A stretch of 64,000 nucleotides of DNA. Source: an uncultured Methanosarcinales archaeon. Lineage in GTDB: Archaea; Nanobdellota; Nanobdellia; Woesearchaeales; CAXGTL01. Under the pieces are notes generated by a model that saw nothing but the letters and a program-made list of their open reading frames with translations, did no database searches and was not told the origin of the DNA. Shown here piece after piece: positions 2,338 through 5,889 of the stretch (the first letter of the stretch is position 1; every line of letters starts with the position of its first letter). The position numbers were made by a program, and so were the translations under genes. Location of the stretch: positions 1-64,000 of the forward strand of contig CAZHVK010000006.1 of the NCBI GenBank assembly GCA_964535955.1, read 5' to 3'.

Positions 2338-3219
2338 ATGATAGAAGAAATGTTTACAAAATGTTCATTACAAGAATCAGATATTGTAGTTGTACCAGCC
2401 CCTTATGAAAATACAGTTTCTGGCATGAAAGGTACAATAAATGGACCAAAACAAATAATCACAGAACTAGATACACAAATAGAATTATATAATCCTTATA
2501 TTGATAAGTGTCTTGCAAAAGAAAAAAAGATTTATCTTTTTCCTAAGCTTAGTTTAGGATTGTTAAAGCCAAAAGACATGGTTGAAAAAGTAAGTAAAAC
2601 AATTGAAGAGATTGTTGGGTTGGATAAATTCTTTTGCATGCTGGGCGGTGAACATACAATCAGTCTAGGTAGTGTTAAAGGCTTATTAAAACATTATAAT
2701 GTAAAAGATTTGTCTGTTTTGCAGATAGATGCTCATCTTGATTCAAGAGATTCTACAGAGGACTACGAACATTTTGGTAGAAAGATAACGCATTCTACTG
2801 TCATCAGAAGGATAAGGGATCAAGGAGTTAATGTTGTGCAAGTGGGTATAAGGAATATGAGTGAAAAAGGTAAAGAATATACAAAAGAATTTAAAGATCA
2901 GATTTTTGATTGTCCAATGGTATTGACTCCAAAATTAGTACAAAAAATAATTAATCAAATCACAACACCTTATGTTTATTTAACAATTGATGTTGATGGA
3001 TACAAACCAAGCTTGATGCCTGAGACAGGAACACCAGAACCAGGTGGTCTTGATTGGAATGGACCTTTATATCTATATGAAGAATTATGTAAACAAAAGA
3101 CTTTGGTTGGTTTTGATGTTGTTGAGGTTGCTCCTTTTCTTCTTAACAATATAACAGCACATAATGCTGCTTTGTTAACATATTATGTAATGGGTTGGAA
3201 ATACTATCAATCTAAATAA
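2338..3219 (+). CDS. speB: Agmatinase (ureohydrolase family)
   Basis: GGEHTI, DAHLD, IDVDG and TGTPEPGG motifs. Confidence 0.9.
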   Translation: MIEEMFTKCSLQESDIVVVPAPYENTVSGMKGTINGPKQIITELDTQIELYNPYIDKCLAKEKKIYLFPKLSLGLLKPKDMVEKVSKTIEEIVGLDKFFCMLGGEHTISLGSVKGLLKHYNVKDLSVLQIDAHLDSRDSTEDYEHFGRKITHSTVIRRIRDQGVNVVQVGIRNMSEKGKEYTKEFKDQIFDCPMVLTPKLVQKIINQITTPYVYLTIDVDGYKPSLMPETGTPEPGGLDWNGPLYLYEELCKQKTLVGFDVVEVAPFLLNNITAHNAALLTYYVMGWKYYQSK

Positions 3220-3626: not shown

Positions 3627-4490
3627 ATGTGCTTCACACCCTTAGCATCAATGATAACTGCAATTGTTGAGATTTGTATAGCTGGTTACCTATTCAAAAG
3701 AATCAAAGATAAGAGATTATACCCTATTGCAATATTTGTAGTCATGCTTGCTCTTTATCAATTAACAGAATTTTTATTATGCACAACCAGTTATGGTTAT
3801 CTATGGGCAAGAATAGGTTTTGCTGCACATACTTTTATGCCAATTTTATTATATCATTTTTTTGTAAATGCTGCAGATAAAGAAATCAAAGAATGGATGT
3901 ATGTGTTCCCAATATTTTTTGCATCTTTAGCATTATTTTATCCTAATTTTATTACCCACACTAGTTGTAATATTTTGAATGTAACATCAGAAAATTTAAT
4001 ATTTAATCAAAATTTTACTCTTATGTTTGCATACTTATTTTACTATCTTTATTGTCCTGTATATGGGGTTTACATATTTTCAAAAAAAATAAAATTCAAA
4101 AAAACTAATATTAAAGTAAAATTAGGTGTTGCAGCTTCATCACTTGGATTGTTATTAGGATTTTTATATTATTTCTGGTCAGCAGTTAGAGAAAAAAACA
4201 TAGCAATGACTTGGATACACACTTCATTTATAATTTTGATAAGTGCACTGATACTTATACTACTTTCAATATTTATAGTAAAGAAATTCAAAAAGTGGTT
4301 TTATGAGGCTAATGCACTTATTCTTGCAATAACAACAATATCAGCAATATTTATGTATTACTTTATACCAAATCTCACACATAATTATGCATCAATCTTT
4401 TGTCAGTTTGCTTTTTTATATAGTATCGCTGCAATTTTATTAATTAATGCATTACATGGAAAGATTGTTAGTTCTAGAAAAAGAAAATAA
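3627..4490 (+). CDS. Polytopic membrane protein (MCF-start family, function unknown)
   Basis: About 8 hydrophobic segments; MCFTPLAS N-terminus and YQLTEF motif. Confidence 0.7.
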   Translation: MCFTPLASMITAIVEICIAGYLFKRIKDKRLYPIAIFVVMLALYQLTEFLLCTTSYGYLWARIGFAAHTFMPILLYHFFVNAADKEIKEWMYVFPIFFASLALFYPNFITHTSCNILNVTSENLIFNQNFTLMFAYLFYYLYCPVYGVYIFSKKIKFKKTNIKVKLGVAASSLGLLLGFLYYFWSAVREKNIAMTWIHTSFIILISALILILLSIFIVKKFKKWFYEANALILAITTISAIFMYYFIPNLTHNYASIFCQFAFLYSIAAILLINALHGKIVSSRKRK

Positions 4491-4764
4491 AATTGGCCTG
4501 AAATTTCAATATTTTCTCAATTCATTTTAAAATTTATTTCATATATCACTTTAGATATTATTTCAACCATTAAATTATGATTGTTGTTTGTCACTGGACA
4601 TCTCAAAAAATGGTGTCCACTGACTTCTAATGCTTAAATTCTGAGGTTATAAGCTATCTTCTCATTCTCAGTGGTCACTGGACATGTGTGTGTGAGGTTT
4701 ATATACTATAATTAACTAAAAATCATTTAGATAGTTAAAAATCTATCATATTTGGTGATATAAA

Positions 4765-5508
4765 ATGAAATTAAATTTATCAAAAATAAATCTAAGTAGA
4801 AATGATTTAAAGAGAAATTTAAAATTTCCAAGATTAATAAATGAAAAACTTGCAGAAGATATAGGCATAATGATAGGTGATGGACATATAAGTAAAAAAA
4901 TCAGACTCAAAAAAGCAGTTGATTATCCTATTTATATATCTGGTAATGCTGTAACTGATAGAGATTATGTTATTAATCACATAAAAAAATTAAAAAAGGA
5001 ATTATTTAACCTTAATTTTCCAATATTTTTTAGACGTAAAAATGAAATTTGTACTAAATTAAATTCAAAAGGATTAGTTGAATTTTATACTAAAATAATT
5101 GGGTTGCCTCTTGGCAAAAAAACAAATATCAAAATACCATTAATAATATGGCATGATTTGAAACTTATAAAAGCTTGTTTAAGAGGAATTGTTGATACAG
5201 ATTTCTCTTTTGTTATTAGAAAAAATAATTATCCTCATTTAAAATTAAAAACACAAAGCAGAAATTTAGTAGAGGATTGTAAAAAAGCATTTAAGTTAAT
5301 AGGAATTGAAACAAGCATAAAACTTGATGTTGAAGAGTATAATCCTAGAACTAGAAAAACATATATTACTAATTATTTATACTTAAGTGGACACAAAAAA
5401 GTAATGAAATTTATTAAAGAAATAAATTTTAGTAATCAGAGAAATTTAATAAAAGCAAAAAAATATATATGGGCCCGCAGGGATTTGAACCCAGGACCTT
5501 CCGGTTAA
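4765..5508 (+). CDS. Free-standing two-motif LAGLIDADG homing-endonuclease-like protein
   Basis: LAEDIGIMIGDGHI and CLRGIVDTDFS motifs. The 3' end overlaps tRNA-Lys antisense. Confidence 0.85.
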   Translation: MKLNLSKINLSRNDLKRNLKFPRLINEKLAEDIGIMIGDGHISKKIRLKKAVDYPIYISGNAVTDRDYVINHIKKLKKELFNLNFPIFFRRKNEICTKLNSKGLVEFYTKIIGLPLGKKTNIKIPLIIWHDLKLIKACLRGIVDTDFSFVIRKNNYPHLKLKTQSRNLVEDCKKAFKLIGIETSIKLDVEEYNPRTRKTYITNYLYLSGHKKVMKFIKEINFSNQRNLIKAKKYIWARRDLNPGPSG

Positions 5509-5565
5509 GAGCTTCATCCTTTTCTAAGAAAAGTCGGATGCTATACCAGATTAAGCTACGAGCCC
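5470..5565 (-). tRNA. tRNA-Lys(CTT) with a 22-nt intron at 30/31 (5513-5534)
   Basis: GGGCTCG/CGGGCCC acceptor. The BHB-type motif CATC-CG^A...GATG-AA^G restores the TCCGG/CCGGA stem and the CT CTT AA loop. Confidence 0.9.
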
Positions 5566-5568
5566 ATA

Positions 5569-5860
5569 CGCCGCAGCCCGGACTTTCATTCCACCTAGAT
5601 TTCTAAAGTGAATTTTGAACCGGGATACAACCAAAATCAATGGTTTTGGTGTACAATTAAATCCTGGCTTTGACGCCGACGCCCGGATTTGAACCGGGAT
5701 ATCCATAAGGAAACGAGATGACTGAAAATGTTCCAGTCTCGCGCAGTACCAGGTTGTGCCACGTCGGCTTTGTTGACAGGATTTAATTTGTATCCGTGAG
5801 GAAACGAGATACCTAGGAAACTTTCCAGTCTCGCGCAGTACCAGGTTGTGCCACTGCGGC
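5569..5860 (-). tRNA. Outer tRNA-Ser(GGA), interrupted three times: 12-nt 37/38 intron (5811-5822), ~165-nt insertion at the variable-arm/T-stem junction (5626-5790) containing another tRNA, and 31-nt T-loop intron (5583-5613)
   Basis: GCCGCAG/CTGCGGC acceptor plus G discriminator; CGAGA-CT GGA-TCTCG anticodon arm; CCCGG/CCGGG T-stem. BHB motifs are present at the anticodon and T-loop introns. Confidence 0.8.
5674..5768 (-). tRNA. Inner tRNA-Ser(GGA) with an 11-nt 37/38 intron (5720-5730), nested in the outer tRNA-Ser
   Basis: Complete cloverleaf: GCCGACG/CGTCGGC acceptor, long variable arm TCC-TTAT-GGA, CCCGG-TTCAAAT-CCGGG. BHB helix CTGG/TCAG. Confidence 0.92.
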
Positions 5861-5889
5861 ATATGTATATATAATGATTATTCATTCTA

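Follow-up and report, generated by a model that had tools for sequence, protein, structure and literature searches.

A complete tRNA-Ser(GGA) gene lies between the two halves of another in the genome of an uncultured archaeon

Several natural systems show how archaeal tRNA genes come to be broken or to harbor other sequences. In Caldiarchaeum subterraneum, a 5' tRNA-Thr fragment (tRNA-Thr-F) lies upstream of the complete tRNA-Thr-II gene, which stands past an insertion of foreign DNA, and the authors of that study propose insertion as a route to introns and split genes (PMC3293823). Fragments of tRNA genes that stem from integration are described as pervasive in archaea, with attachment-site remnants in Thermococcaceae (PMC9897764). 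Split tRNA genes may also have adjacent parts: the halves of tRNA-Asp in A. pernix are 121 nt apart, and their bulge-helix-bulge (BHB) motif with both flanking helices (hBHBh') is followed by a 14-bp stem (PMC3218864). Finally, a C/D box small RNA in a tRNA-Trp intron is an example of a guest RNA in a tRNA intron (PMC3218864). Here we describe a locus that bears on all of these, found in a stretch of 64,000 nt (hereafter the window; contig CAZHVK010000006.1 of assembly GCA_964535955.1) from an uncultured Methanosarcinales archaeon that is assigned to the Woesearchaeales in the GTDB lineage. At this locus a complete tRNA-Ser(GGA) gene sits between the halves of another. We propose, with a probability of about 0.55, that an older resident tRNA-Ser gene was broken by the insertion of a second copy and that its halves persist as co-transcribed by-products. 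In its working, the locus would be most like an insertion-disrupted tRNA gene with remnants; in its looks, it resembles an adjacent split tRNA.

The nested anatomy reported in the initial annotation is present in the sequence in every coordinate and motif. On the minus strand, positions 5860-5791 and 5625-5569 are two undamaged halves of one tRNA-Ser(GGA), separated by a 165-nt insert (5790-5626) that contains a complete second tRNA-Ser(GGA) at 5768-5674. The 70-nt outer 5' piece comprises the acceptor strand GCCGCAG, the D arm, the anticodon arm with a 12-nt intron in its loop (5822-5811) and a variable arm that ends in GGATA. The 57-nt outer 3' piece comprises the T stem and loop, interrupted at 59/60 by a 31-nt intron (5613-5583), followed by CTGCGGC and the discriminator G. 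The inner gene (95 nt, called by ARAGORN; Rfam tRNA score of 43.6 bits with relaxed filters, against a gathering score of 29) has the acceptor stem GCCGACG/CGTCGGC and an 11-nt anticodon-loop intron (5730-5720), and is devoid of a T-loop intron. It is separated from the outer 5' piece by a left spacer of 22 nt (5790-5769) and from the outer 3' piece by a right spacer of 48 nt (5673-5626). Both secondary structures that had been described for these spacers were found: a perfect 12-bp inverted repeat that clamps the inner gene, the left arm of which (5788-5777) begins 2 nt past the outer 5' piece and pairs with the right arm at 5666-5655, and a hairpin with 10-nt arms that are 90% complementary, located between the clamp and the outer 3' piece (5650-5630). 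The 292-nt stretch folds at -107.9 kcal/mol (z = -6.2), with none of 200 shuffles folding as well. The minimum free energy (MFE) structure contains the clamp along with both acceptor stems, outer and inner, and the hairpin is likewise present in MFE folds. After the outer 3' piece come the letters TAT and, 3 nt downstream, a tRNA-Lys(CTT) gene (5565-5470; 51.3 bits with Rfam). We also observed that the outer acceptor stem can be extended by five pairs (5854-5865 with 5565-5576; 12 nt, 92% complementary); these extra pairs join the 5' leader to the TAT spacer and the first G of tRNA-Lys, and may be due to chance in A/T-rich sequence.

When positions 5626-5790 are removed in silico and the halves are joined by their coordinates, ARAGORN calls an 84-nt tRNA-Ser(GGA) with a canonical cloverleaf. 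The joined tRNA has the same anticodon as the mature inner tRNA and differs from it at 6 of 84 positions, which amount to two compensated acceptor pairs and two variable-loop bases. The initial view that both copies are intact and that neither is a simple duplicate of the other is borne out, given that the acceptor stems differ and yet are fully paired. It was further argued that this difference reveals selection on both copies. The difference is real, but for the outer copy selection does not follow from it, since the acceptor stem GCCGCAG/CTGCGGC also occurs in complete tRNA-Ser(GGA) genes at two related loci (L013 and L028, introduced below). The outer acceptor could thus be a retained older state, for which no compensatory history is needed. 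Most archaeal chromosomes are described as carrying non-redundant tRNA sets (PMC3293823).

The comparison with related genomes is informative. Species-representative genomes were scanned with a 23-letter pattern of the tRNA body, which yielded 85 loci, most of them from Methanobrevibacter, in which the same body occurs by coincidence; the window is not among them. The related set consists of the five loci that share the variable arm and T arm of the window, namely L013, L028, L072 and L075 (Candidatus Woesearchaeota), together with L046. Synteny with the window extends to two of these, L046 and L075, in which genes for EF-1alpha and S10 and a small conserved open reading frame (ORF) likewise precede the tRNA array. 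Protein identities between the window and L046 are 89.7% for EF-1alpha, 94.1% for S10, 83.3% for the small ORF and 85.8% for a winged-helix protein; the corresponding values are 88.4, 88.2, 74.2 and 83.2% between the window and L075, and 87.2, 92.2, 79.5 and 83.2% between L046 and L075. Judging from these sequences, the three genomes would be close to a three-way split. The window has a G+C content of about 30%. As a side observation, L046 is titled as an uncultured Methanosarcinales archaeon and is the closest to the window in its flanking proteins, and its tRNAs and gene order match those of L075, which is titled as a woesearchaeote; the title of L046 may therefore be a mis-assignment.

The three syntenic genomes are in three different states. 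In L046, the shared promoter block is followed by an 18-nt leader, a single tRNA-Ser(GGA) and then tRNA-Lys, with no nest. The single gene carries the inner type of acceptor, a 13-nt anticodon-loop intron and a 16-nt T-loop intron. (The L046 promoter block was aligned by eye, the three-way MAFFT alignment having placed it under the outer 5' piece.) In L075, the promoter is followed by a 71-nt 5' piece with the acceptor strand GCCGACA that ends at the same GGATA, a 16-nt spacer and a complete gene (GCTGATG/CATCAGC) without a T-loop intron, after which come TAT and tRNA-Lys. L013, which is distant and not syntenic, has a 5' piece with the acceptor strand GCCGGCG, in which the intron is 45 nt long and the anticodon stem holds an A-A mismatch, and past it a 22-nt spacer and an intron-less complete gene with the acceptor GCCGCAG/CTGCGGC. 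About 100 nt upstream of this piece, at about 2881-2903 on the plus strand of L013, a segment resembles by eye the first 20 nt of tRNA-Ser and could be an older remnant. The remaining two loci, L028 and L072, have single tRNA-Ser genes and no piece. The nesting itself is kept in none of the five loci. The initial annotation had named decay of the outer halves in relatives as the mark of a disrupted pseudogene, and such decay is seen in part, in that L075 has only the 5' piece, L046 has no nest and the L013 piece carries a mismatch.

These states compare well with those of the insertion remnants known from other archaea (PMC3293823; PMC9897764). In the cases described there, as here, a 5' part lies upstream of a complete gene for the same isoacceptor in direct orientation, the old upstream context is kept and related genomes show the uninterrupted state. 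The window thus holds a partial copy in direct orientation beside a complete copy, and its relatives hold the uninterrupted gene. The differences are that those insertions hold a mobile element of 1.8 kb to about 23 kb with a recombinase, whereas the gaps here are of 22 and 48 nt with no element gene, and that here both old halves bracket the complete gene, with acceptor strands that match each other and not the inner gene. A split tRNA gene would instead be expected to show conserved halves with compensatory change. Among the five related loci we find no such pattern, L075 having, within 6.1 kb, the 5' piece only and L046 neither half. Nor is there an evident need for a split gene, as the halves enclose an entire tRNA gene for the same anticodon.

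Pieces of tRNA-Ser occur in three of the six related genomes (the window, L075 and L013), and in each the 5' piece stops at the same GGATA, with a C and then an A-rich run behind it. This recurrence is in line with another hypothesis, that the 5' piece has been retained because it serves a separate role, either as a structured leader required to express or process the inner tRNA or as a 5' half that is trans-spliced to a distant 3' half, as might be the case in L075; a two-part system of longer standing would then exist, of which the nest in the window is one form. In favor of this hypothesis, the body of the L075 piece is unchanged outside of the acceptor, the intron and the variable loop, with three of seven acceptor bases differing from those of the window, and the complete gene stands too close to the piece in each of the three genomes to have a promoter to itself, so that its transcription must pass through the piece. 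However, no 3' partner was found for either orphan: an exact acceptor complement of the L075 piece is lacking on both strands of the 6.1 kb around that locus, and none exists for the L013 piece in the about 6 kb around it. Neither the mismatch in the L013 piece nor its long intron, which is not among the motifs with h of at least 4 (see below for helix h), speaks for function, and L046, L028 and L072 manage without a piece. The introns of the L075 piece and of the adjacent complete gene differ at only 1 of 13 nt, which would fit gene conversion or a recent copy. We therefore regard a role of this kind as improbable. Eight of the 86 pattern matches have no exact acceptor complement within 260 nt; three of these are at contig ends (L026, L058 and L084), two have a G-U pair in the acceptor (L002 and L076), one is L014, and L013 and L075 are real orphans. 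Extra fragments of tRNA-Lys, -Gln, -Glu or -Met were not found near the corresponding genes in the six related sequences.

The relatives also inform on whether the nest is an artefact of assembly, in which two strain alleles of the tRNA-Ser locus were threaded through shared repeats. A stretch of 32 nt in the outer 5' piece is identical to the inner gene, a further repeat of 12-14 nt is common to both copies, and the source is probably metagenome-assembled, like the relatives. Yet both novel junctions (5791/5790 and 5626/5625) would have to exist in real reads, and a repeat of 32 nt is shorter than the final k-mers commonly used in assembly. The independent assembly of L075 has the same left junction, from 5' piece to spacer to complete gene, a support that extends to the left junction only, and the flanks of the window are collinear with those of two relatives. 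An artefact thus appears very improbable, and we take the locus to be real and unusual.

Whether the outer tRNA can still be made depends in the first place on the middle junction. We modeled a BHB as an outer, exon-exon helix (h), a central helix of 4 bp (H), two 3-nt bulges that are cut past their second base and an inner helix (h'). Cleavage between bulge bases 2 and 3 is the rule for such motifs, and when applied to the three tRNA-Ser introns of the window and to the T-loop introns of the relatives it gives central helices of 4/4. The anticodon-loop introns of the outer and inner genes each have H 4/4, h 6 and h' 1. The outer T-loop intron has H 4/4, h 5 and h' 3, or (4,5,3), and is the best BHB motif in a scan of the array. 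A broad BHB scan and a brute-force search for combinations of introns were both too permissive, so that only introns evident from intron-less relatives were kept and re-listed more strictly; introns proposed by brute force in variable arms and D arms were rejected as spurious. The 16 introns read as genuine are the anticodon-loop and T-loop introns of tRNA-Ser, -Lys, -Glu and -Gln in the window, L046 and L075, together with the intron at 30/31 of tRNA-Lys in the window. The central helix is 4/4 in 11 of these and 3/4 in the other five, and h is at least 5 in all except the tRNA-Lys intron of the window (h 2, h' 6).

The middle junction does not resemble these introns. At the splice sites defined by homology, H is 3/4 with two G-U pairs and both h and h' are 0; the other two cuts that are equivalent owing to the repeated TA have H 1/4 (h and h' 0) and H 2/4 (h and h' 1 each). 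Splicing in one step at any of the three was therefore discarded, as none has a useful flanking helix. Given that H of at least 3 is reached by 5,579 of 36,046 arbitrary site pairs in the array (15.5%), a junction of (3,0,0) is no better than chance, and the relaxed BHB that the initial annotation had placed there is not supported. The features that define a BHB, namely a 4-bp central helix, two 3-nt bulges and at least one outer helix, are not all present at the direct junction. Excision of the inner tRNA through a BHB at its acceptor ends was also considered and rejected, the 8-nt linkers between clamp and acceptor not being complementary. Thus, the splicing mechanism first put forward for this locus is unsupported at its critical step. 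Genes for tRNAs with several introns are known from Thermoproteales, DPANN and Asgard archaea, and the outer gene, with introns at 37/38 and 59/60, and the neighboring tRNA-Lys, -Gln and -Glu, with one to three introns each, conform to that pattern. However, archaeal tRNA introns are reported at 11-129 nt (PMC3218864), a range that the 165-nt interval exceeds, and it has no motif. The C/D box small RNA in tRNA-Trp is likewise a stable RNA that is encoded in a tRNA intervening sequence and freed from the same precursor; there, a guide RNA is the guest and the host intron is a canonical BHB intron at 37/38, whereas the host "intron" at this locus does not pass as a BHB.

One good solution emerged when pairs of consecutive excisions were sought whose outcome is exactly the joined product. 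In a first step, cuts after 5790 and 5649 form a motif of (3,0,12) in which the 12-bp clamp serves as h' and 5795-5792 (GGAU), at the end of the outer 5' piece, is opposed to the four bases past the right clamp arm, with three of four paired. In a second step, cuts after 5791 and 5626 form a motif of (3,0,5) with a 5-bp stem of the hairpin as h'. The spacings of 2, 6 and 6 nt fit such a path. It is on this path that the hypothesis of a functional nest rests, according to which the outer tRNA is still matured and its host intervening sequence is twintron-like: the inner tRNA would leave through RNase P and tRNase Z or through the first relaxed BHB, the halves would remain clamped, the second relaxed BHB at the hairpin would remove the last 24 nt and a ligase would join the exons. 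In favor of this hypothesis, the path exceeds what structured null sequences commonly give, with between 48 and 102 of 1,500 yielding one as strong. With the helices kept and the lengths and letters of the linkers random, the counts are 129 of 1,500 for any path and 48 for an equally strong one; with the real spacing and random letters they are 278 and 102; and with fully shuffled spacers, 31 and 1. The share of structured nulls with a path of any strength counts against the hypothesis, as does the fact that the criteria for the path were chosen post hoc, once the sequence had been seen. For the second step, an alternative register was also drawn by hand. It cuts after 5792 and 5625 and has an H of 4/4 with an h' of 6, but was set aside, since its product is 2 nt shorter than every relative.

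Energetic considerations weigh against maturation of the outer tRNA as well. In a two-strand model without the inner tRNA, BHB-type registers reach -24.6 to -27.5 kcal/mol, compared with -36.9 kcal/mol for the clamp, variable arm and hairpin, and registers for the second step reach -13.5 to -16.7 kcal/mol, compared with an MFE of -27.6 kcal/mol. The path opens the variable arm and both of the G-C pairs of the hairpin, which are its only ones, at a cost of about 9-14 kcal/mol relative to the rival folds, and neither of its motifs, each with 3/4 central pairs, has an exon-exon helix, unlike 15 of the 16 genuine introns, in which that helix is at least 5 bp. The MFE structure of the full precursor uses the extended hairpin and not a BHB. 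With the junction motif at chance level and this cost, the 165 nt do not resemble the spliceable intervening sequence that they had been taken for. The product would moreover be redundant with the inner tRNA, and no relative among the five loci has kept the arrangement. On the other side, a long stem beside a 4-nt helix with bulges resembles the split-tRNA junctions described in A. pernix (PMC3218864), and DPANN endonucleases with an extra loop are reported to go with more disrupted tRNA genes, in genomes for which incomplete tRNA sets are also reported (PMC5829648). This link to disrupted tRNAs keeps a functional reading in play. We thus consider a two-step splicing path possible and a functional nest unlikely, though worth keeping in view; the specific version in which the inner tRNA is freed, the clamp holds the halves and two nested relaxed BHBs are cut and ligated in turn is slightly less likely again.

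The locus shares several features with an adjacent split tRNA. As in A. pernix (PMC3218864), the parts are more than 100 nt apart, a long stem stands right past the 5' part and a syntenic relative has an uninterrupted gene; the split in A. pernix is thought to be recent. The known split tRNAs described there have a canonical hBHBh' directly followed by a G/C-rich stem of 12-14 bp, are split at 30/31, 32/33 or 37/38 and have a 3' half with its own promoter. In contrast, the break here is at the junction of the variable arm and the T stem, the motif is 3/4 without an outer exon helix and a whole tRNA lies in the interval. The stem is A/T-rich, and its right arm ends 29 nt before the 3' part with the hairpin in between. 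Circularly permuted tRNAs, as in Thermofilum pendens and Cyanidioschyzon merolae (PMC3218864), are similar in being joined at or near the T loop and in depending on RNase P, tRNase Z and a BHB cut; at this locus the 5' piece comes first, then the complete gene and then the 3' piece, and no 3' half precedes a 5' half.

The breakpoint can also be read at the DNA level. The join of variable arm and T stem, GGATATCC, is an 8-nt palindrome, and the insertion lies at its center, flanked by TA on either side. As read from the sequences of the loci, L046, L072, L013 and L028 have a longer palindrome of 10-12 nt. A competing helix, GGATACA/TGTATCC, had been pointed out across the middle junction, and it is indeed present. 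As five of its seven pairs follow automatically from a palindromic target and from TA being repeated on both sides of the insert, it is mostly a by-product. The palindrome would thus account both for the recurrence of the breakpoint and for most of the helix that spans the junction. Furthermore, the right clamp arm, taken together with the next 7 nt, reads like an inverted if imperfect copy of the left junction, where the outer 5' piece meets the spacer. The complementarity on which the nested path draws can therefore also be seen as a duplication of that junction in inverted, imperfect form, and because the right clamp arm copies the left junction in inverted form, our best guess is that the insertion took place by palindrome-centered breakage with template switching.

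A further hypothesis regards the insert as a small DNA unit, mobile or excisable but non-autonomous, in which a tRNA minigene carries inverted repeats and for which a palindromic TA is the target. The locus would then be polymorphic in the population, and precise excision could restore the outer gene. The TA flanks, an insert that starts with CA and ends with TG and the 12-bp inverted repeat that brackets the tRNA are in line with this, and the joined ends of the insert would form a palindrome around TA, like the target. The breakpoint also recurs in three genomes, and L046 resembles an empty site with the same promoter block. The gene in L046, however, has the inner and not the outer type of acceptor and hence is no simple empty site. 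Inverted repeats at the very ends, as would be expected of a small transposable element, are weak, and the 12-bp repeat is not terminal, since its right arm is internal and lies 29 nt from the right end of the insert. The flanks of the insert and the clamp have no second copy in the 64-kb window or in the 85 loci, where the spacers gave only short matches of 9-11 nt at chance level; the clamp 12-mer has no other exact copy in the window, and two matches with one mismatch, at 634 and 38244. Checks of the adjacent ORFs against Pfam, NCBIfam and PHROGs revealed no recombinase or mobile-element gene in the insertion or nearby, and the ORF at 3627-4490 matches none of these families. An excisable unit therefore seems slightly less probable even than a separate role for the 5' piece.

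The initial annotation held that a single transcript yields both tRNA-Ser and tRNA-Lys. Co-transcription is plausible; it would start from a TATA-like box, TTTATAAA, at 5897-5890, the 3' end of which is 29 nt upstream of the outer 5' end, and no run of more than four T occurs before a T7 run at 5463-5457, past tRNA-Lys. This spacing suits the outer 5' end, given the distance expected between box and start site in archaea. The motif CTTTATAAA recurs in both syntenic relatives, at about the same distance ahead of the L075 5' piece and at a greater distance ahead of the L046 gene. Oligo-T tracts are where archaeal transcription terminates, and the runs inside the array reach T4 at most, the T7 run being the first strong one. 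The 22-nt spacer leaves no room for a separate promoter of the inner gene. The box is therefore probably the promoter of the whole array and the T7 run probably its terminator. The promoter spacing and the lack of a strong internal T run also count in favor of a functional nest.

Taking these results together, we favor the insertion remnant because the junction motif fails, the product would be redundant, the relatives show three states, the L013 piece is damaged and Caldiarchaeum provides a precedent. According to this hypothesis, the resident gene was a tRNA-Ser(GGA) with anticodon-loop and T-loop introns directly upstream of tRNA-Lys, and it would have been broken at the DNA level when a 165-bp segment with a second tRNA copy entered the center of the palindrome between variable arm and T stem. 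The inner gene at 5768-5674 would probably be the working tRNA-Ser(GGA). A single precursor would probably still be made from the array, starting at the resident promoter that precedes the outer 5' piece and ending at the T7 run past tRNA-Lys. RNase P and tRNase Z would free the inner tRNA and tRNA-Lys, the splicing endonuclease would remove the ordinary introns and the outer halves would end as a long 5' leader and an inter-tRNA spacer that are not rejoined. We infer the transcription unit, the order of processing, the non-ligation of the halves and the recency of the event from the sequence. A breakpoint centered on a palindrome could recur independently, so that the event in the window may be young; alternatively, the 5' piece may have been kept uniform by gene conversion from the adjacent copy.

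Several observations count against this hypothesis and, in part, in favor of a functional nest. The outer halves are without any defect, with seven of seven acceptor pairs and five of five T-stem pairs, and both ordinary outer introns retain full central helices. The two-step path is self-consistent and yields exactly the mature outer tRNA that is expected, the clamp begins 2 nt from the end of the 5' exon as in split-tRNA precursors, and central helices of 3/4 in genuine-looking introns of L046 and L075 indicate that a mismatch there is tolerated in the lineage. The outer 5' piece and the L075 piece differ only in three of seven acceptor bases, in the intron and in one variable-loop base. Such a pattern of change would be that of a functional tRNA, and reconciling it with a remnant appears to require recency, independent events or gene conversion. 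The spacers that flank these pieces in the window, L075 and L046 no longer align, in genomes that are as far apart as about 88% EF-1alpha identity; when L013 is included, the spacer alignments among the four are again short, A/T-rich and unconvincing as homology. Lastly, no mechanism of insertion has been demonstrated, and the insert itself is without a recombinase or mobile-element gene.

The neighboring tRNA genes are rich in introns. The window tRNA-Lys(CTT) has a 22-nt intron in the anticodon stem at about 30/31 (5534-5513) rather than at 37/38, with H 4/4, h 2 and h' 6, whereas the tRNA-Lys introns of L046 and L075 sit beside the anticodon; the position of the intron has thus turned over among close relatives. 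In Nanoarchaeum equitans and Staphylothermus, tRNA-Lys(CUU) is split at this same 30/31 position (PMC3218864). Introns at 59/60 are common in the lineage, with seven listed in tRNA-Ser, -Lys, -Glu and -Gln across the window, L046 and L075. Five of these end in GAAAG before the T and the other two in GAAAA and GGTAG, and this end pairs with the T loop. The T-loop intron of the outer tRNA-Ser is homologous to the 16-nt one of L046 (at about 3068-3083), the fourth central pair being compensated (A-U versus G-C). Farther along the minus strand of the window are a tRNA-Gln(CTG) at about 3536-3427, with an insert in the D loop and a 12-nt T-loop intron, and a tRNA-Glu(CTC) at about 3366-3250, with a 13-nt anticodon-loop intron and a 32-nt T-loop intron. 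Both are missed by ARAGORN and by Rfam at the gathering threshold. In the spacer between these two genes (about 3426-3367) there appear, by eye, to be two hairpins with stems of 9 and 10 bp, comparable to the hairpin at 5650-5630.

A free-standing ORF at 4765-5508 on the plus strand encodes an intact two-motif LAGLIDADG homing endonuclease of 247 aa (Pfam LAGLIDADG_3, E = 5.8e-8) that also matches intein-bearing proteins weakly. The ORF is convergent with tRNA-Lys and shares 39 nt with the 3' end of that gene, the last residues of the protein being encoded antisense to the T arm. The ORF is absent from the syntenic L046 and L075. Among the 85 loci a homologue occurs in one, L013 (1984-2766 on the minus strand; 33% identity, E = 3e-31), where it likewise converges on the 3' end of a tRNA gene, here an intron-rich tRNA-Met, and the orphan tRNA-Ser piece is about 220 nt away. 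The endonuclease is thus found in two of the three related genomes with pieces and in none of the three without, which we take as an observation and not as grounds to name it as the cause. The palindrome is unlikely to be its target, because the inner gene keeps the same palindrome. That the ORF acted as an agent of local rearrangement is possible. Compared with L046, in which tRNA-Glu follows tRNA-Lys within about 25 nt, the window has about 1.85 kb extra (3627-5470), which also includes the ORF at 3627-4490 for a hydrophobic protein of 287 aa that reads as a membrane protein. Among the three syntenic genomes, the tRNA cluster is a hot spot of rearrangement.

The gain of introns and the splitting of tRNA genes in archaea are still argued, and natural intermediates in support of the insertion model are few. 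In close relatives, this locus is found in three syntenic states: as a single gene (L046), as a nest that retains both old halves intact (the window) and as an orphan 5' half (L075), with a breakpoint at the center of a palindrome that is built into the tRNA-Ser of the clade. It also carries a warning for annotation, since standard finders saw only the inner gene and missed most of the neighboring tRNAs: on the array, ARAGORN called the inner gene alone and Rfam at its gathering threshold tRNA-Lys alone, and intron-bearing tRNAs are partly missed by such finders according to an Asgard census preprint as well. In agreement with the initial annotation, we found no literature report of a tRNA hosted in a tRNA intron, and the word "nested" does not appear in the main text of that census of tRNA introns, dated 2026. 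Should the halves be dead, the locus is a clean snapshot of the replacement of a tRNA gene. If instead they are still joined, the known range of the archaeal splicing machinery would be extended, and the locus would be the first tRNA hosted in the intervening sequence of another tRNA, the first BHB-type intron within an intron and an evolutionary midpoint between intron-bearing and split tRNA genes.

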